From an uncultured Pseudanabaenaceae cyanobacterium (GTDB taxonomy: Bacteria; Cyanobacteriota; Cyanobacteriia; PCC-9006; JAAUQQ01), in contig CALIGI010000082.1 of assembly GCA_938021205.1 (NCBI GenBank), positions 1,111 to 65,110 on the forward strand: a stretch of DNA of 64,000 nucleotides, in the 5' to 3' direction. Each line of letters starts with the position of its first letter. Position 1 is the stretch's first letter. Position numbers and translations under genes: made by a program. Below the pieces are notes generated by a model, which made no database searches, had not been told where the DNA came from, and saw only the letters and a program-made list of their open reading frames with translations. This document shows, piece after piece, positions 32,166 through 53,661 of the stretch.

Positions 32166-33629
32166 TTACGACTGCTTAAACCGCTCCTTCGCCTCATCAA
32201 AGGCCGAGCGCATCACCCCCTGAATCTTCTCGGGGTCCGGCGTTTTACCGCCCATGAGATCGCCGAAATAAACGCAGGCGCTCTCACCCAAGGCCCAGGT
32301 ATAGGCCGCAGCCCAGGATGCTGCTACAACACTGCCGAAAACCGGGATAAACTTGACCAGCTCCCGCCCGATCACCTGGGCCAGGAATCCTCCGGCAATA
32401 CTGCTAACCACCCCGCCCGCCTGGGATGGGCTAAGGGTTTGGCCGTAGAGTTTGCCGAGTAATCCCACCATGGAAACCTGGAGGGCTGTGAGCACTGGCA
32501 TGGTGGCGAAGGGCAAAGGCACGGCGGCGGCGGTGGCGGCCATGATCGAGAAAGCTGATATGTAGCGGCGGCCTACGTTGCGATAGAGGCTACCCAGTTG
32601 CTCATTGACATCAGTCTGTTCGTTTAGCAACTGCTCTAGGGCACGGGATTCGGCTTCGGGGAGTAGCGCTGCGAGGCGATCGCGCAATTGCTCTAGTCCA
32701 TACAAAGCTGGAGTGTATTCGTCCTCTTCTAGAGTGAAGTCCAGCAGTAGTGCCTGGTCGTAGAGCCCGGCAAAGTCTTGTTGGATGGCTGCGAATGCAC
32801 GGGTGACTGCTTCAAAGGTTGGCGGATAGGCAGGGTGATCGTCCCGGGGACTGGGGTAAAGTTCGTGGAGGCAGGTGACGGCTAGGAAGATGGGAATGGC
32901 GGGGTAGGTTGCCCGGAGGGTTTGGGCGATTGCTCGTAGGCTATCCGTGGCGAAGTCGTTGATCTTAACCGTCAGAATCAGAATTCTTGCGCCTTGACCT
33001 TCGCCTTCTAATTCCGTTGTCAGTTCCCCGAGGATGTCCTCGGTGGACTGGCTGGCATCACCCAAGCCCACGGTATCGGTGAAGATCAGCAGGGGCAGCT
33101 CGTCTGAGGGGTAGGCGTAGCGTTGGGTGTGCTGGGTATGGGGTCGGTAGCCCTGGCCGATAATTTCGGCAGAAACTCCTGTGAGGCCTCGCACAATGGA
33201 ACTTTTGCCGGTTTGGGGCTTGCCGATGAGTAGGGCTTCGGTGGTGGGTAGCTCGGTGCGGACAGCGGCTAGAATCTCGGCGACTCTGGCTTCACTGACA
33301 TTGAGATAGTCGTTGAACCAACCACTGGCACTGCCACTCACTTTTTGCGCAGTACTGCCGACCTGTTGGGCAACTTCCTGAGCCTGTTTGATAGGGAGGC
33401 GTTTCTTGAGCGCTGTTGGGATTGCGCCCAGGGGAGGGATTGCCTTGACGATGAATTTGCTGAGTTTTTGCCAGGTGGCGGGTGGTTGACCGGAATTTGG
33501 ACCAGAATTTGGACCGGCATTGAGACTGGCATGGGGGCTAGGTTCGGTGAGCTCCTTAGATGATGAGGGCTCGGAGTTCATTGTGTTCTGGGAAATGTCT
33601 TCCGTCATGACAGCCACGCTAAGAGCCAA
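32166..33629 (-). CDS. GTP-binding protein with C-terminal DUF697-like membrane domain
   Basis: P-loop GKPQTGKSS and DTVGLGD. The C-terminus has hydrophobic Gly-rich segments (GGVVSSIAGGFLAQVIG, VFGSVVAASWAAAYTWALG). Confidence 0.7.
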   Translation of the reverse strand: MALSVAVMTEDISQNTMNSEPSSSKELTEPSPHASLNAGPNSGPNSGQPPATWQKLSKFIVKAIPPLGAIPTALKKRLPIKQAQEVAQQVGSTAQKVSGSASGWFNDYLNVSEARVAEILAAVRTELPTTEALLIGKPQTGKSSIVRGLTGVSAEIIGQGYRPHTQHTQRYAYPSDELPLLIFTDTVGLGDASQSTEDILGELTTELEGEGQGARILILTVKINDFATDSLRAIAQTLRATYPAIPIFLAVTCLHELYPSPRDDHPAYPPTFEAVTRAFAAIQQDFAGLYDQALLLDFTLEEDEYTPALYGLEQLRDRLAALLPEAESRALEQLLNEQTDVNEQLGSLYRNVGRRYISAFSIMAATAAAVPLPFATMPVLTALQVSMVGLLGKLYGQTLSPSQAGGVVSSIAGGFLAQVIGRELVKFIPVFGSVVAASWAAAYTWALGESACVYFGDLMGGKTPDPEKIQGVMRSAFDEAKERFKQS

Positions 33630-33787
33630 AATCCTTATTCTGATTATCGGATTTTGGTCTAGGTCTGGCTAGGGGGCTTATCCGAATTGAGGAGGAGTAG
33701 CATCACGAAAATTTCTATGGTGCTAATCACGGTAATCAATCGCAAAGGAGGCCTGGAGATATAGATATCCCTAATCTCGGGGGTGCC

Positions 33788-33806
33788 ATCACAAGATCTT
33801 CACATT
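33788..33806 (+). promoter_or_regulatory. TCACA-N6-TCACA direct-repeat box A, with a -10-like TAAGGT at 33814-33819
   Basis: ATCACAAGATCTTCACATT. There are 9 nt between the second TCACA and TAAGGT. The box lies 50 nt upstream of ATG 33856. Confidence 0.6.
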
Positions 33807-33855
33807 GGTTCTTTAAGGTGGACCCATAACCAAAGAGAATTTGAGAGCAAGAGCC

Positions 33856-34020
33856 ATGTCTGGTTATCCTGATTGCCCTTGCTGCTCCTATGAACTCCTT
33901 CGCCATGTGAGCGATCGAGGAACGGCTTGGTTCTGTTCCCATAGCTATCAAGAAATACCTGTATGGAGCCTATCCGATGGCTTGAAGATCTCTGCTATTG
34001 GAGCATCACGAAAAGCATGA
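33856..34020 (+). CDS. small Zn-ribbon-like protein (54 aa), copy A
   Basis: Hand translation gives MSGYPDCPCCSYELLRHVSDRGTAWFCSHSYQEIPV... It is a paralogue of 41922-42101, and the fourth Cys is replaced by Ser. Confidence 0.6.
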   Translation: MSGYPDCPCCSYELLRHVSDRGTAWFCSHSYQEIPVWSLSDGLKISAIGASRKA

Positions 34021-34367
34021 TGGAATTACGCCCCTGCGATCTCACCCGGCAGCCGACTACGCTCGGTCAGATCGTTGATGAATTTGTCAGTAGTTGCCCC
34101 ACCCCCATCTATGGGGATATCTTGGCTCGTCCGGTGGTGCGTCGCTATTTAATTAACTATGTTTTGCAGCGCATCCAGTGGGAGCTGCCTCCGGGGCTAC
34201 TGCGGGTGGATGAGACCCAGCCAGAGATGGCACGGCAGGATGTTGTCGCCTTTCGCCAATATGTTGAATGCGCGATCTACTGGGGCATGGAGGAGATTAT
34301 TCGCGATCGCCTCGACCTATCCCTGAGTGAGAGCCACAACAGCCTCGCGATCGGATCTGGGGGCTAA
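34017..34367 (+). CDS. uncharacterised 116-aa protein, copy A (paralogue of 42098-42457)
   Basis: ATGA start/stop overlap with the upstream Zn-ribbon ORF, as in copy B. The shared core is EFVSSCP.P.YG...RPVVRRYL..YVL.R.QWELP..LLRVDETQP...YVECAIYWGMEEIIRDRLDLSL. Confidence 0.75.
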   Translation: MMELRPCDLTRQPTTLGQIVDEFVSSCPTPIYGDILARPVVRRYLINYVLQRIQWELPPGLLRVDETQPEMARQDVVAFRQYVECAIYWGMEEIIRDRLDLSLSESHNSLAIGSGG

Positions 34368-34675
34368 CCTTTAACCCGTTCTCTCTCTGGTCTACCGCTT
34401 CCTAACGTTGCCAATGCCAAGGAGTTGAGGCTGAACCAACTAAAACCTGCGTAGAATCTGTTCGCAGTTCTCTGGGCTTGGTGAATTTAGCGACTCTACC
34501 CCCTGCCAAATCCCTTCAGTGGATATTTGAAAAGCGTCTTTGCTCCTAGGGTCAGTCAGTTGAATACGGAGTCTAAGCACCCTTGGGGAGAGAGCGACGA
34601 CTTCTCGCAGTGATTGTGCAGTTTGGCTAGCTTCCCCAAACATTCTCTAAAACTAAATTTGCTGAGTAGAGCCCC

Positions 34676-34858
34676 ATGAACATTGATCAAGAGCCCACCG
34701 CAGCAGCATCCTACGCTCGCACGTTAGTTGCTCGGGGCTGCCCCCAAAGGCTTGCTATTGTGGTTGGCACCATCTTGGCGAGAACCGACAACGCTCTGGA
34801 ATACACCCGCCAAGAAAAAGAACTGATTGGCCAAGCCTATGGGCATTTGGCTCGGTAG
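34676..34858 (+). CDS. hypothetical small protein
   Basis: 60-aa ORF only. Confidence 0.3.
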   Translation: MNIDQEPTAAASYARTLVARGCPQRLAIVVGTILARTDNALEYTRQEKELIGQAYGHLAR

Positions 34859-35065
34859 TTGAGGCCCGGTGAGCTGTTCTGAAGAAAGCAACATCTGGAA
34901 TTACATGAGCCCATTAAAGTCAGACAATGTGAGTGAGCTTCTTGTGACGTCCTAGTCACGGTGGGGACCTCTTGATCAAATGTTGACGTTCACGATAGAG
35001 CTAGTGAGGCTGGATCATAGGCTTGGAGGCTGTCAAACCTATGCGAGTTTAGAGATCTCTACACT

Positions 35066-35250
35066 CACAAAAGAAAGGGCCAGTCTAAGGAATTAGACTG
35101 GCCCTTTCTTTATATTCAATAGCCTATATAGTCCAACGATAAAAGTTGGGATGGCTAGTGGGATTTATACAACAAACAGTCAGTAAGTTAGCCGTTTTAT
35201 AATCCTCAAAAGGAGGTTTGGCCAACAAGATTTAAACAGTTGATTTGTCT
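35066..35250 (-). ncRNA. candidate small RNA (box C promoter to terminator, no ATG ORF)
   Basis: Box C at 35272-35290 points leftwards and the terminator at 35110-35071 closes the unit. I found no ATG in the intervening minus-strand sequence. Confidence 0.3.
35071..35110. terminator. bidirectional intrinsic terminator
   Basis: Perfect 16-bp stem AAGAAAGGGCCAGTCT / AGACTGGCCCTTTCTT with loop AAGGAATT. T-rich sequence follows on both strands. Confidence 0.8.
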
Positions 35251-35271
35251 CTTACCTATTGAACCTCACGC

Positions 35272-35290
35272 AATGTGAAGATCTTGTGAA
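35272..35290 (-). promoter_or_regulatory. TCACA-N6-TCACA direct-repeat box C (minus orientation)
   Basis: The minus strand reads TTCACAAGATCTTCACATT. Possible -10 hexamers are TTCAAT (35263-35258) or TAGGTA (35258-35253), so the spacing differs from boxes A, B and D. Confidence 0.5.
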
Positions 35291-35505
35291 TAGGCCAATC
35301 TAAATGCAGACCATCGAAATTTCATGGGACCGGAGAGACTGGTACCAAACTCGCTAGGGGCTGGGGATGACCCGGCTTTATTGAGCCAAGGTAGAGTCAC
35401 GGCAATGCGGTTACATTCTTAAAACTACATTTAACTTCATGTTTCGTAGTGGGTTTGTGAGATTTCTAGACGGATACTTAAAACAAGCTAAATAATTTGG
35501 CTCCT

Positions 35506-37506
35506 ATGAAGATTCTGGTAGTCGAGGATGATGAAGCCTTTTCTGCTTTAGTTGAAGCTGCTCTAGAAGAACAGCATTACCAAGTGGATCGGGTGACTGA
35601 TGCCCAATCTGGGTGGGATTGGTTGGATGCCTATGAGTATGATTTAATTCTGCTGGATTTGATCTTGCCCGGTAAGGCAGATGGACTTTGCTTTTGTCGA
35701 GAGTTGCGGGCCAAGGGCGATCTTACGCCGGTTTTATTGATGACGGCGAATGAAGCCCAGTCCATTAAGGTTCAAGGATTGGATGCGGGGGCTGATGATT
35801 ATTTAGTTAAGCCTTTTGATTGGGCTGAGTTGTTGGCGCGAGTGCGTGCCCTATTGCGTCGGGGCCAGGATTCCCTGTCTCCCCTATTGGTCTGGGGGAC
35901 TTTAGAGTTGGACCCCAGCAGTTGCGAGGTGGTGTGCCAAGTTCAGCCGAATCTGTCCGGGGCAACTTCAGTGGGAACGGGGCCAAAAGTGCTGGCTCTC
36001 ACGGCTAAGGAATATAGCCTGTTGGAATTGTTGCTGCGTAATCCCCATCGCATTTTCAATGCGGGAGCATTATTGGATCGCCTGTGGGATTCCGAGGAGG
36101 CTCCATCGGAAAATGCAGTGCGAGCCCATATCAAAGGACTCCGCCGCAAGCTTAAGCAGGCGGGAGTTGGAGACCCTGTGGAGACGGTGTATGGCCTGGG
36201 CTATCGTTTGCGGGGGGCTCCATCCCAGGCGGAGGAGCCTTTTGCTGGGGCAGAGCAATCTGGTTCAACGGATCTTGCGGCGGAGTCTCCAGCGGGACAG
36301 CCTACTCCGGAGCCTTTTCAGCAGCAGCTTGAGCGGGTATGGCAGCGAGCCAGAAAAACCTATTTAGAGCAAGTGACGGCCTTGGATGGCATGGTGGAGC
36401 GTTTGCAGCAGCAGTCTACGACATCCTCCCTGTTCTTGACTCCAGAGGATTGGCAGCAAATGCGCCGTCAGGCCCATAGTCTTAAGGGGGGGCTGGGTAG
36501 CTTTGGGCTTCATGGGGCGGCGGCGGTGGCTGCCCAGCTCCAGGACTTAGTTGAGCCTGCCCTGGATGAGGGTAGCAAAAGTAGCGATGACTCAGGTGCT
36601 GTACCTCCTGCAGGTGGAGTACTACAGCCTCTCTTACTCCAGTTGCGTCAGGCGCTGGAAGCTGCTGTCACCTTGCAGCTAGAGCCTTTGGCACCGGATC
36701 CTCCAAGCCCCCCAGAGCCTTTAGGCCAATGTTGGTTGGCCACGACTGATGCTGCCCTAGTAGAGCGCTTGACGGCGATCGCGGTCAGCTCAGGTATTAC
36801 CCTAGATTTCCTATCATTGGAGGATTCTTTGGAGCGTTGCTTGCTCCCTCGGGAAGATGGCCTCTCCGCAGGGGGGGGAGCTCCACCCCAGGTGGTGATC
36901 TGGGATTTGGCGACAGTCCAGAGTGTTGCTTTAGAGCGTTTAGGAGGATTGCCTTGGATTGCCTTGATTGAAGGAGATTCTTTGCCCCAGCGAGTCAAGG
37001 CAGTCCAAGGCGGTAGCAGTTGCTGTGTGGATCGCCTTGCTGGCAGTGAGGCAATCATGGAAGCAGTCGCGGCTCAGTTGCAGCGGCTACGCCAAAAACA
37101 GTTGGGGGCGGCTAAGCTGCTGGCAGTGGATGATGATGCTCCGCTATTGAATCTGTTGGAAGGGATGTTGCAGCCCTGGGGGGTGGAGGTGACGCTGCTG
37201 AGCCAGCCTGAGCAGTTTTGGCAGGTGCTCCAGAAAACCCAGCCGGACCTGTTGCTGTTGGATGTGGAGATGCCTGGGGTCAATGGTTTAGACCTCTGCC
37301 GAGTGGTCCGTCAGGACCCTCAATGGTGCCGATTACCGATCTTGTTCCTCTCTTCTCGGCGGGATGGCCCCTTGCTGGAGCAGCTTTTTGCAGCGGGGGC
37401 CAGTGATTTCTTGAGCAAGCCAGTGACGGGGGAGATGCTGGTGGCTAGGGTCAGGAATTGTTTGGAGCAGTCTGCATTGGGTCAACCTCAGGTGCTGCTG
37501 TCATGA
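35506..37506 (+). CDS. multidomain response regulator: REC, OmpR-type winged helix, Hpt, receiver-like domain, REC
   Basis: REC1: KILVVEDDE...LILLDLILPG...LLMTA...YLVKPF. wHTH: LTAKEYSLLELLLRNPHRIF...VRAHIKGLRRKL...VYGLGYRL. Hpt: QAHSLKGGLGSFG. C-terminal REC: LLAVDDD...LLLLDVEMPG...FLSS...FLSKPV. Confidence 0.85.
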   Translation: MKILVVEDDEAFSALVEAALEEQHYQVDRVTDAQSGWDWLDAYEYDLILLDLILPGKADGLCFCRELRAKGDLTPVLLMTANEAQSIKVQGLDAGADDYLVKPFDWAELLARVRALLRRGQDSLSPLLVWGTLELDPSSCEVVCQVQPNLSGATSVGTGPKVLALTAKEYSLLELLLRNPHRIFNAGALLDRLWDSEEAPSENAVRAHIKGLRRKLKQAGVGDPVETVYGLGYRLRGAPSQAEEPFAGAEQSGSTDLAAESPAGQPTPEPFQQQLERVWQRARKTYLEQVTALDGMVERLQQQSTTSSLFLTPEDWQQMRRQAHSLKGGLGSFGLHGAAAVAAQLQDLVEPALDEGSKSSDDSGAVPPAGGVLQPLLLQLRQALEAAVTLQLEPLAPDPPSPPEPLGQCWLATTDAALVERLTAIAVSSGITLDFLSLEDSLERCLLPREDGLSAGGGAPPQVVIWDLATVQSVALERLGGLPWIALIEGDSLPQRVKAVQGGSSCCVDRLAGSEAIMEAVAAQLQRLRQKQLGAAKLLAVDDDAPLLNLLEGMLQPWGVEVTLLSQPEQFWQVLQKTQPDLLLLDVEMPGVNGLDLCRVVRQDPQWCRLPILFLSSRRDGPLLEQLFAAGASDFLSKPVTGEMLVARVRNCLEQSALGQPQVLLS

Positions 37507-37739: not shown

Positions 37740-40466
37740 GTGTCTATGGCTCTCAATGAACCCAATCAAATATTTGCGAATATCGCCTTAAAGATCCGCC
37801 AGTCCTTGAATTTAGAGGACATTTTGGAGACGGCGGTGGCGGAGGTGCGCCAGTTGTTGGGCTGCGATCGCGTGCTGATCTATCGTTTCTATCCCGACTG
37901 GAGTGGTGTCATTGCGGTGGAATCGGTGGCGAGCGCTGAGCTTTCGATTTTGAGCCGTGTCATAAAGGACCCTTGTTTTGAGCAGAGTTGGTTGAAGCCC
38001 TATCGGGAGGGACGGCTCCAGGCCACCGCAGATGTTCAGCAGGCGGGCCTTCGAGATTGTTATGTGGAATTCCTAGGGGAGTTTCAGGTGCGGGCCAATC
38101 TGGTGGTGCCGATTCTCTTGGGCGATTGCGCTGAACCCCTGTGGGGGCTGTTGATCGCCCACCATTGTCAGAAGCCTCGTGTTTGGTCTGAGGAAGATGT
38201 TCAGTTACTGAAGCAATTGTCGGACCAGATGGCGATCGCCATTCAGCAGGCTTTGTTGCTCCAGCGCACCCAGGCTGAGCTGGTCGAACGTCGCCTGGCT
38301 GAGGCCAATTTGGAGGAGAGTGAGGCGCGCTTTCGTCGCCTGGCGGAACAGGCCCAGGATGTGATCTATCGCTATGTGTGGCAGCCTGAAGCCCAGGTGG
38401 AATACATTAACCCAGCCATTACGACCTTGACGGGCTACACCCCTGGAGAATTTTATGCCTCGCCGGAGTTGCTGTTTTCTCTGGTGCATCGCGAAGACTT
38501 GAAGCAGTTTCGTCAGCAACTTTCGCCTCAGCTCCAGAGTGCCGATGATGATGTGGAGCCCCAGCCCCGGTTGATCGTGTGGCGCTGCCTCCATAAGGCA
38601 GGCCACGTGTTGTGGGTTGAGCAGCGTTGTACGCCCCTGCGGAATGAAGCGGGAGAATTGGTGGCGGTGGAAGGGATTGTGCGGGATATTCGCGATCGCA
38701 TGGTGGATTTGACTCCTTCGCCCGCTGCCTCAGTGACTGAGGCCGGCTTGTCTCAGCTTGGGTTTGGTGCGGACGCTAGAAAGCGGCTGTGGCAGAGTCT
38801 GCGGGAGCCATTTTCTAGCCTAGCCCTGTCTCGCTATGCCAGTGCCAGCGTTATGGTGGGCATGATTTTTCTGGCGGAGGGGCTGCGTCAGGGGGGGCTA
38901 TCGGCTGCTAGCCAAATGCTGGTGCTGTTTGTCGGGCTGGTGCTAGCAGCCAGTGGAGGAGGATTGCAGGCAGGGGTGATGGCCACCCTCGCCCTCTGGC
39001 TATATCTCTTGGTTACGCTGGTGTTGGATGGAGCCACGGGGCGGACGGATTGGCCGCTATACCTGGCGATTTATGGGCTTGCCACGGCCATCGTGGCAGT
39101 GGTGGTGGGGCAGACCAAGGATCGCAGCCTTTCAGCCGATCAGGCCTTGAACCAGGTGAATGAAACTCTTGAACTGCGGGTGCAGGAGCGGACTGCAATC
39201 TTAGATCGCACCAATAATCAACTCCGAGAGGAAATTGAGGAGCGGCGGCGAGCCCAGGCGGCTCACCAGGCCGCAGAAATAGAATTGCAGCAGCTCAACC
39301 AGGTTTTGGAGAGTCGGGTCTTAGAGCGTACAGCGACCCTGGCAGCCTCCGAGGGACGGTGGCGCAATTTCATTGATACCGTGCGCTTGTTGGTTGTGGA
39401 TATCGGTGTGGATGGCCGAGTGAACTATGTCAATCCCCATTTCCTGACCCTGACAGGCTATGAAGCTGAGGCTGTGATTGGCTGCAATTGGTTTGAGACC
39501 TTTGTGCCCCGCCACCAGCTCTCCCAAACTCGGCAGATTTTTCAGGAGTTCCTGGATGAGGGCTTCCATTCCTATTTCCCCACGGTTATTTTGACGGACT
39601 CGGGCGAGGAGATCGTCGTGGCCTGGAATAACACGCTGCTGCACGATGCTGCTGGTCAGGTCCAGGGCAGCCTCAGCATTGGTGAAGATATCACTGAACG
39701 CTATGCTGTCTCCCGGATGAAGGATGAGTTTATTTCCGTGGTGAGTCATGAGTTGCGTACACCACTCACCTCCATTCATGGTGCTCTGGAACTGTTGGAT
39801 TCTGAGGTGGTGCCGCTGGAGTCGGAGCGGGGCCGTCAGGTATTGGCGATCGCCGCCGAAAATTCCCAGAGGCTGGTGCGCCTCGTCAATGACATCCTTC
39901 AGCTAGAGCGCTTGGAGTCGGGCAAGATCAACCTGAATCAGAATGTCCTGTGCAGTACTGAGGTCACGGCCCGAGCCCAGGAGCTGATGCAAATGCTCCT
40001 AGAGCGCTCTCAAATTCAGTTGGTTGTGGAGGATCCTGGTCTAGAGTTGTGGGCTGATGGCGATCGCATCATTCAGGTGCTGACTAATTTACTAGATAAC
40101 GCCATCAAGTTCTCGGAAGCGGATGGCCAAGTGAGCCTTACCGTGGAAGCGGCAGCTTCCCCCACGGTTCCGGGGCAAATGATGGTGTTGTTTAAGGTGA
40201 GTGACCAAGGTCGGGGGATTCCCCTAGATAAGCTGGGCAGTATCTTTGAGCGCTTTCACCAAGTGGATGCCTCGGATTCCCGTCGGCGTGGCGGCACGGG
40301 ATTGGGATTGGCCATTTGTCGCAGCATTGTCCAGCAACATGGCGGGCAGATTTGGGTGAACAGTACTTTGGGCCAAGGGAGTCACTTTTATTTTGTTTTG
40401 CCGTCGCAGCCTGAGGGAAAAGGCAAAATGCTGGAGGGCCAGAGATCCCCACCAAGCTCTACCTAG
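37740..40466 (+). CDS. sensor histidine kinase (GAF, PAS, 4-TM block, coiled coil, PAS, HisKA, HATPase)
   Basis: H-box VSHELRTPLTSI, N-box LTNLLDNAIKFS, G1 DQGRGIP and G2 GTGLGLAICRSIV. A hydrophobic block lies mid-protein. No C-terminal receiver. An alternative ATG is at 37746. Confidence 0.9.
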   Translation: MSMALNEPNQIFANIALKIRQSLNLEDILETAVAEVRQLLGCDRVLIYRFYPDWSGVIAVESVASAELSILSRVIKDPCFEQSWLKPYREGRLQATADVQQAGLRDCYVEFLGEFQVRANLVVPILLGDCAEPLWGLLIAHHCQKPRVWSEEDVQLLKQLSDQMAIAIQQALLLQRTQAELVERRLAEANLEESEARFRRLAEQAQDVIYRYVWQPEAQVEYINPAITTLTGYTPGEFYASPELLFSLVHREDLKQFRQQLSPQLQSADDDVEPQPRLIVWRCLHKAGHVLWVEQRCTPLRNEAGELVAVEGIVRDIRDRMVDLTPSPAASVTEAGLSQLGFGADARKRLWQSLREPFSSLALSRYASASVMVGMIFLAEGLRQGGLSAASQMLVLFVGLVLAASGGGLQAGVMATLALWLYLLVTLVLDGATGRTDWPLYLAIYGLATAIVAVVVGQTKDRSLSADQALNQVNETLELRVQERTAILDRTNNQLREEIEERRRAQAAHQAAEIELQQLNQVLESRVLERTATLAASEGRWRNFIDTVRLLVVDIGVDGRVNYVNPHFLTLTGYEAEAVIGCNWFETFVPRHQLSQTRQIFQEFLDEGFHSYFPTVILTDSGEEIVVAWNNTLLHDAAGQVQGSLSIGEDITERYAVSRMKDEFISVVSHELRTPLTSIHGALELLDSEVVPLESERGRQVLAIAAENSQRLVRLVNDILQLERLESGKINLNQNVLCSTEVTARAQELMQMLLERSQIQLVVEDPGLELWADGDRIIQVLTNLLDNAIKFSEADGQVSLTVEAAASPTVPGQMMVLFKVSDQGRGIPLDKLGSIFERFHQVDASDSRRRGGTGLGLAICRSIVQQHGGQIWVNSTLGQGSHFYFVLPSQPEGKGKMLEGQRSPPSST

Positions 40467-40830: not shown

Positions 40831-41211
40831 ATGACAAAACGAATCTTGATTATTGATGACGATGATGGCATTCGCGACATCGTTGCCATTTCGCTGGAGG
40901 CTTTAGCTGGATGGGAAGTCCTCAAGGCAGATTCTGGGCCAGCGGGGGTGGAACTGGCTCGTTCGGCTCAGCCCGACGGGATCTTGCTGGATGTGATGAT
41001 GCCAGGCCAGGATGGTATGGAGACCTTGAAGCAGCTCCAGGCTCAGCCTGAGACCTCTGCCATTGCGACGATTTTTCTCACGGCGAAGGCTCGCTCCAGT
41101 GAGCAAAAGCGATTATTAGATTTGGGCTGTGTGGGGTTAATTACGAAGCCCTTTGAAGTGCAAAAGCTAGTTCCGCAGATTTGTGAATTGTTGGGATGGC
41201 TCCTGCCCTAG
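40831..41211 (+). CDS. single-domain (CheY-like) response regulator
   Basis: ILIIDDDD, ILLDVMMPG, FLTAK and ITKPF. Confidence 0.9.
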   Translation: MTKRILIIDDDDGIRDIVAISLEALAGWEVLKADSGPAGVELARSAQPDGILLDVMMPGQDGMETLKQLQAQPETSAIATIFLTAKARSSEQKRLLDLGCVGLITKPFEVQKLVPQICELLGWLLP

Positions 41212-41293: not shown

Positions 41294-41312
41294 ATCACAA
41301 AATCCTCACAAT
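41294..41312 (+). promoter_or_regulatory. TCACA-N6-TCACA direct-repeat box D, with a -10-like TAGGCT at 41320-41325
   Basis: ATCACAAAATCCTCACAAT with a 9-nt spacer to TAGGCT. It lies about 90 nt upstream of ATG 41401. Confidence 0.55.
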
Positions 41313-41400
41313 CTTTTTCTAGGCTGAGGATTGTTGTGTTTCTTAGGGCAAATTTTTGGTAGAGGGCAAGTCACAAGCTCCGTTTCGCTTTGAGCGAGAA

Positions 41401-41793
41401 ATGACGATCTCGATATTGGAGAAGCAAGATGTAGCTGCACTGCAGGCGCTGAAGCAATTTTTGCTAAATATGCCCGGACCGAAGGCGATTGAGACTGTTT
41501 TGGTTCAGGCTGTTTGCTACTGCGCGGAGGAACGTCCAGAAGCTTTTAACTGGGTCGTTGCCCATGCTGCTCAGCTAGAGCCAGAGCTGCGACTGGAGCA
41601 GTGGGCTTACAACTTCGTGGTGAACGCCTTGGCGCAGAAGGGCTGTGTTGTGGGGCGAGAGTTTCGTTTTGAGCAACAGTCGGACTCCAGTCAGTTGCAA
41701 TTACATCTAGAGGCTATGGTCCGACAGATTCTCTGGGAGAACTGCTCCCAGGGGGAATGGTTGCTGCTGAATCGTTTGTTTGGGATTGAGTAA
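41401..41793 (+). CDS. uncharacterised 130-aa protein
   Basis: ORF with normal composition preceded by box D. No motif recognised. The ORF-track start at 41356 is a TTG. Confidence 0.55.
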   Translation: MTISILEKQDVAALQALKQFLLNMPGPKAIETVLVQAVCYCAEERPEAFNWVVAHAAQLEPELRLEQWAYNFVVNALAQKGCVVGREFRFEQQSDSSQLQLHLEAMVRQILWENCSQGEWLLLNRLFGIE

Positions 41794-41846
41794 ACTCAGG
41801 TGAGTTTTAGAGGGATAGTCGGTTCAGCACTATGGCTGACAGAACC

Positions 41847-41865
41847 ATCACAGGATCTTCACATT
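41847..41865 (+). promoter_or_regulatory. TCACA-N6-TCACA direct-repeat box B, with a -10-like TATAGT at 41873-41878
   Basis: ATCACAGGATCTTCACATT with a 9-nt spacer to TATAGT. It lies 57 nt upstream of ATG 41922. Confidence 0.6.
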
Positions 41866-41921
41866 GTTTCTTTATAGTTCAGTTAAGAACAAAACGAGAT
41901 GTGATTGGGGAGAAAGTTTAT

Positions 41922-42101
41922 ATGTCTGGATATCCTGCTTGCCCCTGCTGCTCCTATGAGCTTCTGCACCGTGTGAGTGCTAAGGGGTCTATCTGGTTCT
42001 GCTCCCATTGTTATCAAGAAATGCCTGTGGTGGATGTTAGCCAGTATCGGCTTTCTGGAACTTTGGTGTCACAAATTTCGAGAGGTACGCGGAAGTCATG
42101 A
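41922..42101 (+). CDS. small Zn-ribbon protein (59 aa), copy B
   Basis: MSGYPACPCCSYELLHRVSAKGSIWFCSHCYQEMPV, with CxCC ... CxxC intact. Confidence 0.65.
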   Translation: MSGYPACPCCSYELLHRVSAKGSIWFCSHCYQEMPVVDVSQYRLSGTLVSQISRGTRKS

Positions 42102-42457
42102 TGGAATCGACGTCTAGGGATAATGTTAGTGATAGTGCTCGTGCCCAGGATCGCATGACGCTGGGAGAGATCATTAATGAGTTTGTCTCCAGTTGCCCCT
42201 CGCCTCTCTATGGCGAAGCTCTGTCCCGCCCTGTGGTGCGTCGTTACTTGGTTGACTACGTTCTGAAGCGGGTTCAGTGGGAGCTACCGTCGGAGCTGTT
42301 ACGGGTGGATGAAACCCAGCCTGGTTCTGCTGCCCAAGATGCCATTACCTTTCGCGAATATGTGGAATGCGCCATTTACTGGGGCATGGAGGAGATCATT
42401 CGCGATCGCCTTGATCTGAGCTTAGTTGATGATGGATATCCGAATCCTGCGGCCTAG
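42098..42457 (+). CDS. uncharacterised 119-aa protein, copy B (paralogue of 34017-34367)
   Basis: ATGA overlap with the Zn-ribbon ORF. About 68 of 89 aligned residues are identical to copy A by hand count. Confidence 0.75.
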   Translation: MMESTSRDNVSDSARAQDRMTLGEIINEFVSSCPSPLYGEALSRPVVRRYLVDYVLKRVQWELPSELLRVDETQPGSAAQDAITFREYVECAIYWGMEEIIRDRLDLSLVDDGYPNPAA

Positions 42458-42511: not shown

Positions 42512-43588
42512 CTATCGCCGATAGGTGCTGCCATCGGGCATGGTGGCTCCAGCTAGATCCGCACCGTTGAGATTGGCACTGCTGATTTCTGCGCGAATTA
42601 GAATTGCCTCAGTGAGGTTCGTTTGGGATAGGTTTGTGCGGGCAAAGTAGCCCTCGGAGAGGATGCCGCGTTGAAGATTCACACCGGTCAAATCTGCACG
42701 GCTGGCATCGCAGCGAGCCAGCTTGGCATCTACCATTACTGCCCCAATGAAGCTGCCATGCTTAAGGTTGGCATCTGCCAGGGTGACGGAGGTGAAGTCG
42801 CTGTTGTTGGCCTGGGCACCAATGAGCTTGGCGCGGTCCAGGCGGGCGTTGACTAGGCTAGCGTTATCTAGGATGGCTTCGCTCAGGTCTGCCTCGGAGA
42901 GTATCGCTCCAGTCAGGTTTGAACCGCGCAGGTTTGCACCGCGCAGATCTGCTCCCCTCAGGGTGGCATCGGCTAGGTCTGCCTGGCTGAGATCTACACG
43001 GGCCAGGTCCGCACCGGATAAATTGGCCCCCCGTAGATCCGTCTGGTGGAGGTTGGCCCCGCGTAGATTGCTGCTGCGATTGCTGCCTTCTTCTCGTAGG
43101 TTGGCCCCGCGTAGGCAGGCCCCGCTGAGGTTGGCTCCGCTGAGGTTGGCATTGCGGAGGTCGCAGTCCATGAGGTTTGCATCTAGCAGGTTTGCCAGGG
43201 TGAGCTGGGCGCTGCGCAGGTCAGCTCCCTGGAGACTACTGCCATGGAGATCGGCGTTATTGAGACGGGCGCTGACGAGTTTGGATTGGTTGAGGTTGGC
43301 TCCGCTGAAACGGCTGTTGCTCAGGTTGGCTTCGCTGAAATCCACACGGGTGAGATAGGCCATCATAAAGTTGCCGCTACTGAGTTCCGCTTTGGCAAGG
43401 TTGACGCCGATGAGGTCAGCCTCCAGCAGGTCTGCACTACGAATACGGATGCTCTGGAAGTTGGTTTTGCCAGTGGCATATTGCTGGAGGAGTTGCTTGC
43501 TGTCCATTAGGTACAGGGATGGGGAAGGGAGTTTGAGCGAGCTTGGGACGGGTTTTGGCGAGGAATAGATGGTCGGTCCAGAGGGCAT
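42512..43588 (-). CDS. pentapeptide repeat protein
   Basis: Long run of A(D/N)L..-type pentapeptides, for example ANLSGANLSGACLRGANL and DLRGANLSGADLARVDLSQADL. Confidence 0.9.
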   Translation of the reverse strand: MPSGPTIYSSPKPVPSSLKLPSPSLYLMDSKQLLQQYATGKTNFQSIRIRSADLLEADLIGVNLAKAELSSGNFMMAYLTRVDFSEANLSNSRFSGANLNQSKLVSARLNNADLHGSSLQGADLRSAQLTLANLLDANLMDCDLRNANLSGANLSGACLRGANLREEGSNRSSNLRGANLHQTDLRGANLSGADLARVDLSQADLADATLRGADLRGANLRGSNLTGAILSEADLSEAILDNASLVNARLDRAKLIGAQANNSDFTSVTLADANLKHGSFIGAVMVDAKLARCDASRADLTGVNLQRGILSEGYFARTNLSQTNLTEAILIRAEISSANLNGADLAGATMPDGSTYRR

Positions 43589-50028: not shown

Positions 50029-53000
50029 TCAAACGATTGCGAGTTCCGGCAATGCCTGGGAATTGCCAAACGATGCAGATAGTTCGATCAATTGTTCCAA
50101 GCTTTGCAGCAGTTGAGTTTGCTTGAAGGGCTTGGAGAAGTAATCAGCGGCTCCCAGGCTCATGGCGAGCTGGCGATGCTTGTCTCCGCTGCGGGAGGTG
50201 AGCATGACTACGGGAATGTCCTCGCAGTTTGGGAGGCTCTTGACCTGGGCCAGGAAGCCAAAACCATCCAGGCGAGGCATTTCTACGTCGCTCATGATCA
50301 CATCAGCGGTGATGCCGCTCTGGAGTTGGTCGATCGCATCTTGCCCATCCTTGGCCTGTTCCACGTGGTAACCCGCTTTTTCCAGCGTGATGCTGAGGAA
50401 GCGGCGTACGTTGATGGAGTCGTCGATGACGAGTACCGTACGTTTGTTGCTGATTGCTATGGGGAGGGCCAAGTTTTGCTCATGCAAATCCTGGCGCTGG
50501 GCATCGCGCAATACCCAGCTCATCAGTTTTTCCATTTCCACTAGGGGAACGACGCGGCCATCGCCCAGGACAACGCAGCCAGAGAAGCCCTGGGGTAGAC
50601 TGATTTTGCCTTCTACGGTTCGGGTGGTGACTTCCTGCTCACCCCAATAGCGATCGCATTCAATGGCGTAGGGTTCGTCTCCATGGGTCACGATCAGGGC
50701 GGAGCTTTGATCGATGATGGGAGAGCTTTCTGTTTCTAACTTAATCAGGGGGCGGACGAAGTGGAGCCAGTTCTGAAGGCGTAGTAGGGGAACGGTGTAG
50801 CCCTGCCATTCCAATAGGTCTTGCTCAGCAGCCTGTACAATTTTCTGTTGTTCTAACAACAACATCTCTTCGACGATATTGGCTGGAAACGCCATGACCA
50901 TGCCTTGGCATTCCACGACCAGCACTCGCGTCACCGAAAGAGAAAGGGGCACGGTTAGGGTAAAGGTACTGCCTTGACCGGTCTTGGTTTCGACGGTGAT
51001 GTCTCCTTGGATGTCTCGCAGGTTGCTGCGGACCACATCCATGCCGACCCCTCGACCGGAGAGGCTCGTGACTTGTTCGGCGGTGCTGAAGCCGGGCTCA
51101 AAGATGAGATTGACCAGCTCTTTGTCGCCCGAGACCTCGATTTCGGCAGGCGTCAGGCCCATGCTGAGTACCTTGCTGCGAATCTTCTCTAGGTTGATGC
51201 CTGCACCATCATCTTGGATGGTGATGGCGACTTGGTTGCCGCGATAGCTCGCGCCAATTTCGATATTGCCTTGGGGCGTTTTGCCTTGGGTGATGCGAGT
51301 CTCGCGGTCCTCAATGCCGTGGTCAAAGCAGTTGCGTAGCAGGTGCATGAGGGGATCTTGGAGCGCCTCAATAATGGTGCGCTCAATTAAGGTGTTGCTG
51401 CCCCGGACCTGAAGATCCACCTGTTTGTCATGGGCCATGGAGAGCTCCCGCAGTAGACGAGGGAAGCGATCGGTGATGGCGGACAGAGGGCGCATCCGCA
51501 TCTGGTTCATGCCCACTTGGAGTTGTTGGGCCGTGCGGTTGAGGCTACGAGAGACGGTTTCGGTTTCTCCCAGGGCTAGTTCGATATCGCTGGTCACTTC
51601 CTGGATTTGTACGACGCTGTCGATGATTTCCTGGGAGACGAGGTGCAGTTCGCTATATTGATCCATTTCCAGCAGGTCGAAGCTGTTGGATAGGGACTGA
51701 GTGCTTGGGATGGGGGTTGAGGGGGGTGGGGTCGTGCTTGGGTTTGCAGGGGTGGAGTTGTTGTGGGTGTTGGAAAGTTGTTGGGTGGCACCGCGATCAT
51801 AGGATTGGCGCAGGATGTTGTTTGCCTGGTCTAGGGACTTAACCCGTTGGTTGAGTAGGCCAAATAAGGTGCTGAGGTAGCCTAGTTGTATGCCCAAGCC
51901 GTTGCGATCAGTGGTGAGTTCGCCGAGGAGTTCTCCGAGGCGCTCTAACTTGCGCACGGAGACGCGGATGCTGGTGTCTTGTCCGGTGGTCGAGCTATTG
52001 TCATGTTCGTCAGTTGAGCTATTGTCAGCTTCTGACTCCGTCAATATGCTGGAGGTGAGCTGGGCGGCTTCTTGGGCGATCGCGTTGTGGTTCACCCCAG
52101 GTTCTTGAGGTGGTTCTGCTGTGGTGGGATTGGTGCTGTTAAAGTCGGCTAGCTCCTCTAGGTCAAAGGCTTCGTCGTTGAGAAAAATGCTGACTAACGT
52201 CTCTGCATCAAGGGCTGTCGGTTCTGAGCTTTCGGCTTCTGACGGCAGATCCGTCGCCGATGCCGGGAGAGGGCTAGGTTCAATTTTGGGTCTAGTCCCT
52301 GGTTCTGAGGATGCTTGGGGCGCTTCTAGGTCGTTCCCATTGGCCTGTTGAAGATCAGGTTGCTCTGTGCTTGAGAACGCGGGAGATTCTTCTAGGGGCA
52401 GATTGTCCGTGATTACTTCGTCTGCTTCTGGGGATATGACTGCTGCGGCTGGGGCTAAGGCGATCGCTTCAAGGCTAAAGTCCTCTGGCGTCATGCCCTC
52501 AAAGAGGCTGTCTAGCACGGCTTCATCAGCAGAAGCGATCGCCTCCACGGATATCTCAGGGGTGGGAGTGGTGGCGGTGGGAGCAGAGTCGTGGGTTGTA
52601 TTGTGCTGTGGGCTTGGTGATTCTGGGGACTGAGATTCTGGGGGCTGGGTATCCACAAGTCCCCCTAGGTTCAATAGATCCGCGAGGGAACTTTCAGTGT
52701 CTAAGCAGTCAGCTAGACCTGAGAAATTGGATGGTTCAATGCTCTCTCCCAAGTCTTCGGGGAAAAGGTCTTGAATTTGAGGGGCTGGCGTTGGTGTCTC
52801 TGATGATTCAGCTAGACTAGTTGTGTCAGCATTTTTGCCTGGCTGATCGGTCTCTTGGGTTGATGTGATCGCTGCTTTGATCGCTTGAGGCAAGAGAACA
52901 GTTTCCGGAATGAGCCCCGCTTGACCCACCAGGACGAGCCCATGGCTGCGTCGCAGGGGCTTGAGCACAGCTTGACAAACCTCCACGAGGTCACTTTCAG

Positions 53001-53661
53001 GGCAGTCGGTACAAAGCTGTAAACCGTGGTTACAGAGGGCGATGAACGGGCTGATTTCTAGCATTTCCCCCAGGCTGCCCATTTCTGCACAGGCGATGAG
53101 AAATTCCTGGCGGAGTAACGGGAGATCAGGATCCTGGATTGCCCCTTCAAGACGATCTAGGCAGGGACCAATTTCACTTTCAAACAGCATGACGCCCATG
53201 TCGCCACCCGCATCGGCCGCGAGACTGGCCTGCTCGTCAGCAGCAGTGGGGTCACCGAGGCGATCATATAGTTGGTCAAGCAACGGCTGGGTGTTGGCTT
53301 CAAGCCAGCCTGCATCAATACCGGAGCGCTCCCGGTAAAGCTCCAACATCTGGCTCATGCGATCCACTGCGCTGAGGAATAGGCGTTCGAGTTCACCTTC
53401 GGGCTCATAGCGTCCTCCCTGGAGGACTTTGAAGAAATCCTCCAAGCGATGGGCGACTTGGCTGAGTTCATGGAAGCCCATTAAGGCGGCTCCACCCTTG
53501 ATGGAATGGGCGGCTCGCAAGATTCCATCAATGGCTTCACGGGTGAGTTTTTGTTCGCCCAGTCCCAATAAGGCTGACTCGATGGTGTCCAGATACTCCT
53601 GGGCTTCCTCCAGGAACTGGAGGCGCACTAGCCATTCTTGATCTGACATTTGCTCCGACAT
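50029..53661 (-). CDS. hybrid CheA-type histidine kinase (Hpt, long acidic/Pro-rich linker, dimerisation, HATPase, CheW-like, REC); PilL/HmpE-like
   Basis: Hpt AAHSIKGGAALMG, N-box HLLRNCFDHGIE, G1 DDGAGI and G2 GRGVGMDVV. C-terminal REC: VLVIDDS...IMSDVEMPRLDG...MLTS...FSKPF. Confidence 0.9.
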   Translation of the reverse strand: MSEQMSDQEWLVRLQFLEEAQEYLDTIESALLGLGEQKLTREAIDGILRAAHSIKGGAALMGFHELSQVAHRLEDFFKVLQGGRYEPEGELERLFLSAVDRMSQMLELYRERSGIDAGWLEANTQPLLDQLYDRLGDPTAADEQASLAADAGGDMGVMLFESEIGPCLDRLEGAIQDPDLPLLRQEFLIACAEMGSLGEMLEISPFIALCNHGLQLCTDCPESDLVEVCQAVLKPLRRSHGLVLVGQAGLIPETVLLPQAIKAAITSTQETDQPGKNADTTSLAESSETPTPAPQIQDLFPEDLGESIEPSNFSGLADCLDTESSLADLLNLGGLVDTQPPESQSPESPSPQHNTTHDSAPTATTPTPEISVEAIASADEAVLDSLFEGMTPEDFSLEAIALAPAAAVISPEADEVITDNLPLEESPAFSSTEQPDLQQANGNDLEAPQASSEPGTRPKIEPSPLPASATDLPSEAESSEPTALDAETLVSIFLNDEAFDLEELADFNSTNPTTAEPPQEPGVNHNAIAQEAAQLTSSILTESEADNSSTDEHDNSSTTGQDTSIRVSVRKLERLGELLGELTTDRNGLGIQLGYLSTLFGLLNQRVKSLDQANNILRQSYDRGATQQLSNTHNNSTPANPSTTPPPSTPIPSTQSLSNSFDLLEMDQYSELHLVSQEIIDSVVQIQEVTSDIELALGETETVSRSLNRTAQQLQVGMNQMRMRPLSAITDRFPRLLRELSMAHDKQVDLQVRGSNTLIERTIIEALQDPLMHLLRNCFDHGIEDRETRITQGKTPQGNIEIGASYRGNQVAITIQDDGAGINLEKIRSKVLSMGLTPAEIEVSGDKELVNLIFEPGFSTAEQVTSLSGRGVGMDVVRSNLRDIQGDITVETKTGQGSTFTLTVPLSLSVTRVLVVECQGMVMAFPANIVEEMLLLEQQKIVQAAEQDLLEWQGYTVPLLRLQNWLHFVRPLIKLETESSPIIDQSSALIVTHGDEPYAIECDRYWGEQEVTTRTVEGKISLPQGFSGCVVLGDGRVVPLVEMEKLMSWVLRDAQRQDLHEQNLALPIAISNKRTVLVIDDSINVRRFLSITLEKAGYHVEQAKDGQDAIDQLQSGITADVIMSDVEMPRLDGFGFLAQVKSLPNCEDIPVVMLTSRSGDKHRQLAMSLGAADYFSKPFKQTQLLQSLEQLIELSASFGNSQALPELAIV

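Follow-up and report, generated by a model that had tools for sequence, protein, structure and literature searches.

Two copies of a zinc-ribbon-like and helical-protein gene pair share a promoter box around a phosphorelay cassette in an uncultured Pseudanabaenaceae cyanobacterium

A 64-kb stretch of DNA from an uncultured Pseudanabaenaceae cyanobacterium (contig CALIGI010000082.1, positions 1,111 to 65,110; the whole stretch is called the window below) carries two copies, A and B, of a two-gene module that flank a phosphorelay cassette. In each module a small open reading frame (ORF) for a zinc-ribbon-like micro-protein is joined to a gene for a larger, predicted helical protein. One and the same type of promoter box stands in front of both modules and of two further transcription units, a gene for a protein of ~130 amino acids (aa) and a candidate small RNA (sRNA). 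We put it at slightly better than even odds (about 0.55) that these parts form a local phosphorelay regulon, in which the regulator of the relay binds the box and co-activates the four neighbouring units. An earlier note on this DNA had already described the duplicated module around the cassette, in agreement with the ORFs, alignments and box reported here. It overlooked that the box, which resembles the site of an OmpR-class regulator, is shared with the two further units, and it is this sharing that links the modules to the cassette.

The two modules consist of the following genes.

33856 to 34020, plus strand: small ORF A, 54 aa, zinc-ribbon-like, CPCC...CSHS; Ser30 is encoded by AGC at 33943-33945
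34017 to 34367, plus strand: large gene A, 116 aa, predicted five-helix protein, whose start overlaps the stop of the small ORF (ATGA)
41922 to 42101, plus strand: small ORF B, 59 aa, zinc ribbon with both CxxC knuckles intact (CPCC...CSHC)
42098 to 42457, plus strand: large gene B, 119 aa, the copy at the ancestral position, syntenic with all orthologues

The earlier note had placed both modules at these positions, and the ORFs were found exactly there. It had also reported the same stop-start overlap in the two copies; both junctions read CATGATGGAAT, in which ATG starts the large gene and TGA ends the small ORF. The large proteins are identical at 68 of 89 aligned residues (BLASTP, E 5e-54), which reproduces the count made earlier, and the small ones at 28 of 41 (E 8e-22). 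At the DNA level, the alignment of modules A and B shows a mean column identity of 78%, and the indels within the ORFs amount to 15 and 18 nt, each a multiple of three. The block YVECAIYWGMEEIIRDRLDLSL, previously described as invariant in the downstream protein, is indeed identical in the two copies. No third copy of either gene was detected within the 64-kb window. Both large proteins have been called in NCBI/ENA, where they are unnamed.

Upstream of each module, with a leader of ~30-40 nt between it and the small ORF, lies the promoter box, which recurs before the two further units.

33787 to 33819, plus strand: promoter box A, CATCACA-AGAT-CTTCACA, with TCACA at 33789-33793 and 33800-33804, a 9-nt spacer and TAAGGT at 33814-33819
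41846 to 41878, plus strand: promoter box B, CATCACA-GGAT-CTTCACA, with TCACA at 41848-41852 and 41859-41863, a 9-nt spacer and TATAGT at 41873-41878
41295 to 41325, plus strand: box variant TCACAAAATCCTCACA, 5' of the ~130-aa gene, with a 9-nt spacer and the -10-like TAGGCT
35274 to 35289, minus strand: box of the sRNA unit, TCACAAGATCTTCACA, divergent from the response regulator operon, with the -10-like TTCAAT 10 nt downstream

The box is a direct repeat, TCACA-N6-TCACA, with a period of 11 bp; written as heptamers, it reads CATCACA-N4-CTTCACA. Direct repeats of a pentamer at 11-bp intervals are typical of OmpR/PhoB-class sites. The common upstream box of the two modules, which the earlier note had pointed out, appears as TCACAAGATCTTCACATTG at 33789 and TCACAGGATCTTCACATTG at 41848. 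Three of the four boxes in the window are identical over 19 nt except for one R position, and from the end of the box to the -10-like hexamer (TAnnnT or TTnAAT) there are 9-10 bp. All four fall in an 8-kb stretch around the cassette, and no further copy was found elsewhere in the 64 kb at up to two mismatches. The box occupies the same positions in the related loci L001, L002, L003, L004, L009 and L015 and in the paralogous locus L012 (L numbers denote loci and P numbers proteins); L002 has five. The module box itself is kept in the same register in L001, L002, L003, L004, L009, L012 and L015, and the variant TCACAAAATCCTCACA also precedes the orthologous ~130-aa gene of L001, L002, L003, L009 and the paralogue L012. 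A scan of metagenomes for the box (WTCACARGATCTTCACATTG) returned 10 matches, all on unrelated non-cyanobacterial contigs and none with module genes; by a rough estimate, ~7 are expected by chance.

The cassette between the modules is made up of three genes.

35497 to 37506, plus strand: complex response regulator, 669 aa, with REC, OmpR-class winged helix-turn-helix (wHTH; Trans_reg_C), HPt and REC
37740 to 40466, plus strand: sensor histidine kinase, 908 aa, with GAF, PAS, a hydrophobic centre, PAS, HisKA and HATPase
40831 to 41211, plus strand: single-domain receiver, 126 aa, with one Response_reg only, in an RcaF-like relay position

In the regulator, Pfam finds Response_reg twice, Trans_reg_C at residues 166-238 and Hpt at 307-389, and the same holds for its orthologues. 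The NCBIfam matches of the regulator are generic OmpR-class ones only, the best being RppA with 256.5 bits over residues 4-239. Between the two PAS regions of the kinase runs a long hydrophobic stretch (residues ~370-470). The GAF domain of the kinase (residues ~24-168) holds the cysteines of a DPCF and a DC[Y/H] motif in four orthologues, the latter reading DCY in the window and DCH in L001. Judged from these motifs, the domain looks like that of DXCF-type cyanobacteriochromes rather than that of RcaE, the kinase of the Rca system of type III chromatic acclimation. Because of the DXCF-like cysteine motifs, light colour is a possible signal, and a light-colour input to the kinase seems plausible. 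The single-receiver protein is conserved in all loci. A survey of every locus with enough flanking sequence showed that the module lies 3' of the single-REC gene, either directly or with the ~130-aa gene in between: this is the case for module B of the window, for L001, L002, L003 and L004, and likewise for L009, L014 and the paralogue L012.

The two further units under the box are the following.

41401 to 41793, plus strand: conserved ~130-aa protein, called from the ATG at 41401 (the mechanical ORF starts from a TTG at 41356)
35066 to 35251, minus strand: candidate sRNA, ~185 nt with approximate ends, with a palindromic hairpin and T-run terminator at ~35111-35069

The ~130-aa gene is located between the single-REC gene and the module in the window, L001, L002, L003, L009, L014 and L012, and is absent in L004. 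Its product, for which neither Pfam nor NCBIfam gives a family assignment, probably belongs to the same system. The candidate sRNA has four homologous copies in three genomes (the window, one in L001 and two in L002), for which a common fold is predicted with 41 pairs, 11 of them with compensatory changes. No ATG was seen by eye in the minus-strand unit. The 19-bp palindromic terminator (~35111-35069) was found by eye and by alignment folding, having been missed by the terminator scan, and is potentially bidirectional. A comparison with Rfam gave sub-threshold matches only, SSRC10 (35.7 bits, cut-off 56) and RefA9; both lie on the palindromic terminator and were judged to be chance. When RNAduplex was run with the sRNA against 94 translation-initiation regions, the box-driven genes were not enriched and ranked 35th to 86th. 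In L002, boxes at 2505, 2946 and 3495 (minus strand) head three minus-strand units 5' of the response regulator gene, two of which are sRNA-like copies; the third leads to an ORF of 76 aa for which the window holds no counterpart. A second kinase, of the ETR1_N type, is encoded just upstream.

A paralogous system with the same gene order as the window cassette was recognised in L012 (1882-8483) and L011. Its regulator (863 aa) has REC-wHTH-HPt-REC with an added GGDEF, its kinase is an ETR1_N-GAF-PAS protein, and then come a single REC, a 135-aa protein, the box, a zinc-ribbon ORF and a 102-aa helical protein. Between the window and L012 regulators, the identity is 70% in the first REC, 68% in the wHTH, 41% in HPt, 23% in the middle part and 50% in the second REC. 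The recognition helices turned out to be nearly identical (NAVRAHIKGLRRKL vs. NAVRAHIKTLRSKL), and the boxes of the two systems are near-identical too. Since L012 comes from the metagenome sample of L002 (also that of L005), one organism may carry both systems with their near-identical boxes.

One could assume that some other factor, such as an unlinked transcription factor or an alternative sigma factor, uses the box as an ordinary promoter element, and that the modules merely neighbour the cassette through shared locus ancestry. The box does overlap the -35 region and could itself be a -35-type element, although its 11-bp-period pentamer repeat is, as established, the typical OmpR/PhoB geometry. 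The distant family member P0020 (L010) has a degenerate, box-like sequence with no cassette within 18 kb; yet in the window all four sites fall in the 8-kb stretch around the cassette and none elsewhere in the 64 kb. Two paralogous systems, perhaps in one genome, with nearly the same box would also mean cross-talk if each regulator bound it, but the linkage of box and cassette survives in exactly that paralogous system, together with a conserved wHTH recognition helix. On balance, we regard this explanation as rather unlikely.

The earlier note had treated the modules as direct repeats about 8 kb apart. Their paralogy is confirmed, but they are no recent repeat: the synonymous divergence (dS) of the two copies has reached saturation (1.25-1.9). 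In a neighbour-joining tree, the branch of copy A lies deep within the core clade, and A is sister to B in 0 of 60 bootstrap replicates. Saturated synonymous sites and the fact that A is never sister to B together indicate that the duplication is old. L001 and L002 carry the module at the B position only, and the order in L001 is GTPase gene, sRNA unit, response regulator gene, with no module A. The A position is represented in L015 and L016. L016 extends into the flank near the GTPase gene (77% identity to 33589-33687 of the window), and its A-type small ORF shares with small ORF A the 5-codon deletion and the LSD...LGAS tail, with CSHC intact; in L015 the A-position small ORF at 261-428 likewise has an intact CSHC and is followed at ~530-570 by the hairpin GGAAACAGGCCGCCCTAG-AAC-CTAGGGCGGCCTGTTTCC. 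As L015/L016 hold this A-position orthologue, the A copy predates the split from their organism. After the split, to go by these alignments, one zinc ligand was altered in the window genome, and the L015/L016 organism appears to be without the large gene at the A position.

Rates of change, calculated by the Nei-Gojobori method, show that both ORFs are under purifying selection. The comparison of the two copies that the earlier note had proposed gives a ratio of non-synonymous (dN) to synonymous divergence (ω) of 0.14 for the large genes (dN 0.268, dS 1.89) and 0.31 for the small ones. For large B against its orthologues ω is 0.09-0.15, for small A against the A-type orthologue in L015 it is 0.11, and for small B against its orthologues 0.27-0.37.

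The altered ligand had raised the question of whether copy A is decaying. The zinc ligands of the small protein are C7, C10, C27 and C30, arranged in two CxxC knuckles in copy B and in all relatives; copy A has C7, C10, C27 and S30 and falls short of the four-cysteine set. The change from CSHC to CSHS, noticed earlier, thus stands: codon 30 is AGC in A and encodes Cys in B and in all relatives. It is no assembly slip of this record, given that L017, a Logan contig assembled separately, agrees with the window at 100% identity over 32486-35512 and reproduces the AGC codon, although the reads may be shared. According to the decay explanation, the replacement of Cys30 by Ser destroyed the zinc site, copy A is a decaying duplicate and module B alone is functional. 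CSHS is unique to copy A among all family members found; within the core clade large A has diverged the most, with dN of 0.25-0.32 to the others vs. 0.08-0.17 among B and its close orthologues; and losses do happen in the family, as with the large gene in L015 and the small ORF in L009. Still, both frames of copy A are intact, with indels relative to B in multiples of three, ω is low for its large gene (0.14 vs. B) and for its small one (0.11 vs. the orthologue), and the box, the -10-like hexamer and the ATGA coupling are preserved. Decay of the copy as a whole is therefore not supported. Two further invariant residues, Cys9 and His29, are adjacent to the altered ligand and might replace it. 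These points make a decaying copy A improbable.

Five orthologous loci and a paralogous one contain the small ORF. In an alignment of six sequences (the two copies of the window and four relatives), M1, Y4, P5, C7, P8, C9, C10, S11, Y12, E13 and L14 are invariant, as are G22, W25, F26, C27, H29, Y31, Q32, E33 and P35. The earlier note had named conservation at the protein level as decisive for these ORFs, and it was found, with ω of 0.11-0.37 and an invariant Cys/His pattern. Across public collections, the small ORF has been called as a gene just four times, and the exact sequences of the two in the window are absent from a collection of 15 billion proteins; no pipeline has ever called them, despite their conservation and purifying selection. 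Small B matches the Pfam family Cys_rich_CPCC (PF14206) with an E of 0.006 and 16.8 bits, under the 24.5-bit cut-off, and small A does not match it. In the AlphaFold 2 model, the ribbon has predicted strands at residues 15-19, 22-26 and 33-35, with a predicted local distance difference test score (pLDDT) of 71-79. Its best Foldseek matches are the ribbons of RNA polymerase C11/Rpb9, ZifS and YfgJ, with a probability of at most 0.99 and E of at least 0.05.

The two proteins probably act as a pair, as the earlier note had proposed; the shared ATGA overlap, a natural fusion and the retention of a paralogous pair make this probable. According to tblastn, the zinc-ribbon ORF is located immediately 5' of the large gene in L001, L002, L003 and L004, and the ATGA overlap is kept in L001, L002 and L003 as well as in both copies of the window. 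P0022 (L014) is a single chain of 218 aa that consists of ribbon, linker and helical domain. The paralogue P0024 (L012), 39% identical, is preceded by a 59-aa CPCC...CNHC ORF across a gap of ~100 nt. Pairing is nevertheless not obligatory. In L009 (2193-2505), the large gene is kept together with the box and the CATGATGGAAT junction, and the ~300 nt from box to junction hold no ribbon ORF, as if the small gene alone had been lost naturally. In L015/L016, the box and an intact ribbon ORF are followed by a terminator hairpin, with no large gene. Of the two regularities that the earlier note had put forward for a survey, the position of the module beside this type of cassette thus held in every locus with enough flank, and constant adjacency of the pair did not.

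The 4-nt overlap with the start of the large gene, the absence of annotation for the small ORFs and L009, where the large gene keeps the CATGATGGAAT junction with no small ORF, might suggest that the small ORF is a regulatory upstream ORF or leader, the translation of which controls the large gene while the peptide has no function of its own. This is difficult to reconcile with the invariant Cys/His pattern and an ω well under 1. Moreover, L015 has a stand-alone copy with its own terminator, the ORF of L012 is conserved at ~100 nt from the large gene, that of L014 continues in frame into the large protein, and the model of the small ORF is predicted to fold as a zinc ribbon. We consider a mere leader very improbable. 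A toxin-antitoxin, selfish or defence module inserted twice near the cassette is scarcely credible: a small 5' gene that overlaps a larger 3' gene by ATGA is a common toxin-antitoxin layout, and two copies occur in one region with a narrow phyletic spread, but no toxin, antitoxin or defence match was found in PADLOC, Pfam or NCBIfam, the synteny with the cassette is strict in at least seven loci and the paralogous system, no mobile-element genes were seen beside the modules, the promoter box is common to units of another kind, and the natural fusion is hard to square with the roles of toxin and antitoxin.

The large protein has few relatives. Among 5.8 billion protein clusters there were 14, which rose to 20 after a profile search; an exhaustive scan of 1.84 billion representatives with a hidden Markov model gave four proteins in total. 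Every relative that could be traced is from a metagenome bin or contig of Pseudanabaenaceae or Synechococcales. Pfam, NCBIfam and PADLOC offer no family for either protein of the module beyond the sub-threshold PF14206, and the profile compared with PDB sequences yielded chance-level matches only (E of at least 0.5). The statement of the earlier note that neither protein can be assigned holds, and no described family includes the small ORF, the large protein or the ~130-aa neighbour. For large A, a first AlphaFold model built on 15 close sequences had a pLDDT of 63 and no fold match. The model of the fusion P0022, built on 20 sequences with distant paralogues included, shows a predicted five-helix domain with a pLDDT of 79-89, the ribbon and a disordered linker. 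In the combined alignment of ribbon and helices, MAFFT put the short ribbon sequences onto the helical block; that alignment was discarded, and because of this misplacement the ribbon part of the fusion was modelled with no alignment. Despite the pLDDT of 79-89, Foldseek found no fold counterpart of the helical domain in the PDB or BFVD. A ComFB-like fold (PF10719; PDB 4wai, 8hja), a lead suggested by a similar motif layout, was rejected: Pfam gave no match to it at E of at most 1, hhalign gave a probability of 0.1% against 4wai, and it did not appear among the Foldseek matches.

Taken together, these data fit a local phosphorelay regulon that could work as follows. The modules are old paralogous copies of one small operon made up of the box, the leader, the ribbon micro-protein and the helical protein. 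The kinase would sense a signal, possibly light colour, and the phosphate would travel via the relay to the complex regulator. The OmpR-class wHTH of the latter would bind TCACA-N6-TCACA, which would replace the -35 element as in class II activation at a Pho-box or L-box, and the binding would switch on all four units jointly, i.e., modules A and B, the ~130-aa gene and the sRNA. Translational coupling would yield the ribbon and the helical protein in similar amounts, so that the two could form a complex. Our best guess is that the pair acts within the relay as a feedback connector or regulatory adaptor. Of all this, the gene layout, the duplication, the constraint on both ORFs at the protein level, the fusion, the linkage to the cassette and the box common to four units, kept in orthologous and paralogous loci, are observed; the factor that binds the box, the direction of control, the contact between the two proteins, the signal and the role of the pair are inferred.

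Several points weigh against this regulon. The transcription starts, the -10 assignments and the binding of the regulator to the box are putative, and the connector or feedback role of the pair is a best guess by analogy. The repeat core is TCACA here as compared with TTGCACA in the L-box, which we take to be TTGCACA-N4-TTGCACA; the latter would presumably have the same 7+4+7 geometry as the present box, a likeness that serves as a lead and not as a test. One review describes the L-box as an inverted motif. The degenerate box of P0020, with no cassette within 18 kb, also counts here, as do the single partners in L009 and L015/L016. The fusion P0022 comes from one 2-kb Logan contig, and its model, with a disordered linker and a predicted template modelling score of 0.46, shows no confident arrangement of the two domains relative to each other. 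Finally, the relatives are all metagenomic, and none of the traced ones is from a cultured strain.

A bolder version would have a heterodimeric effector or connector of ribbon and helical protein, the sRNA and the ~130-aa partner make up the full output of an RcaC-type relay driven by a DXCF cyanobacteriochrome, with the three-cysteine copy as a functionally diverged second output. The whole would then be a light-colour pathway with targets other than phycobilisome genes. We consider this version less likely than not.

What is new at this locus are the locally encoded outputs, namely the novel proteins and the sRNA candidate; the regulatory architecture is known. The data suggest that the relay architecture of chromatic acclimation, along with its promoter logic, serves a second time, and in two or more paralogous versions, for a compact set of neighbouring genes. 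If the local regulon is real, it would provide a defined binding-site model for an uncharacterised regulator and bring an sRNA and two new protein families into cyanobacterial signalling. It would also offer a natural experiment on the divergence of a protein pair, with ligand loss, partner loss and fusion in separate lineages. The case illustrates that gene callers still overlook conserved, functional micro-ORFs. The impact is limited by the distribution of the system, which is confined to a few Pseudanabaenaceae/Synechococcales metagenome bins with no cultured carrier among the traced relatives.

Some features of the surroundings deserve mention. The region is bounded on the left by a gene for a 487-aa GTPase-like protein with MMR_HSR1 and DUF697 (32166-33629, minus strand) and on the right by one for a 358-aa pentapeptide-repeat protein (42512-43588, minus strand). 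Both boundary genes are syntenic in L001/L008, where the right-hand equivalent is a 331-aa ORF. Farther to the right, ORFs of 1210 and 950 aa are located at 50029-53661 and 53852-56704 (both minus strand). By synteny with L005/L008, the 1210-aa ORF would be a CheA-like protein with Hpt, HATPase, CheW and REC, which points to a gene cluster of the chemotaxis or phototaxis kind at ~8 kb from module B. The HIP1 palindrome GCGATCGC recurs across the window, e.g., at 33911-33918 and 34303-34310, and fits a cyanobacterial origin; in public data, metagenome bins of Pseudanabaenaceae are the closest relatives.

The components can be compared with several known systems. The small protein shares with zinc-ribbon micro-proteins (the N-ribbon of C11/Rpb9, ZifS TTHA0897 and YfgJ) the CxxC knuckles ~16 residues apart and a predicted three-stranded sheet. 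The matches to these proteins and to PF14206 are, however, sub-significant or below the cut-off; moreover, Cys9 and His29 are additional here, and copy A is without the fourth Cys. Among the zinc-ribbon ribosomal proteins, e.g., L31, L33, L36 and S14, there are C+/C- paralogue pairs. Modules A and B resemble them in being small zinc-ribbon paralogues, one of which has a loss of a cysteine ligand; they differ in that one of four ligands is altered and both copies have the same promoter box. MgrB (of PhoQ/PhoP), SafA and PmrD are small proteins induced by two-component systems, to which they give feedback or connection. The likeness consists in very small proteins encoded beside a two-component system and apparently controlled by it. 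There is no kinship of sequence or fold to these three, and here there are two proteins, a zinc ribbon and a helical one, with no membrane segment. At Pho-box promoters of the class II type, which are activated by PhoB, a direct repeat with an 11-bp period replaces the -35 element and ends ~10 bp 5' of the -10. The present box ends 9-10 bp before the -10-like hexamer, in the same place; its half-site sequence is different, the regulator has an additional HPt and REC, and no phosphate-related genes are involved.

The closest likeness in architecture is to RcaE/RcaF/RcaC of Fremyella diplosiphon and others. To our knowledge, complex regulators of the RcaC type have been described almost exclusively in chromatic acclimation, in which they govern phycobilisome genes by way of the L-box. 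The target operons of the Rca system are cpc2, cpeC, pcyA and pebAB. The domain order REC-wHTH-HPt-REC of the regulator in the window is what we take to be exactly that of RcaC. RcaE phosphorylates RcaC via RcaF, and RcaC, a complex OmpR-class regulator (PMC4752607, PMC13079394), binds L-boxes (PMC8256508, PMC4752607, PMC13079394), whose position in the promoter decides between activation and repression (PMC8256508). Both systems have a GAF-PAS kinase, a single receiver and a complex OmpR-class regulator, and a repeated element stands at the target promoters of the Rca system and at the four putative ones here. Unlike in the Rca system, the four boxes of the window precede small genes and the sRNA candidate, and no phycobiliprotein or bilin-synthesis operons. 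The kinase is larger here (908 aa), with a hydrophobic central segment and DPCF rather than a green/red GAF of the RcaE type. As the putative targets in the window, the repeat core and, to judge by its motifs, the GAF type differ, we do not file the locus as an Rca system; the likeness is one of architecture.

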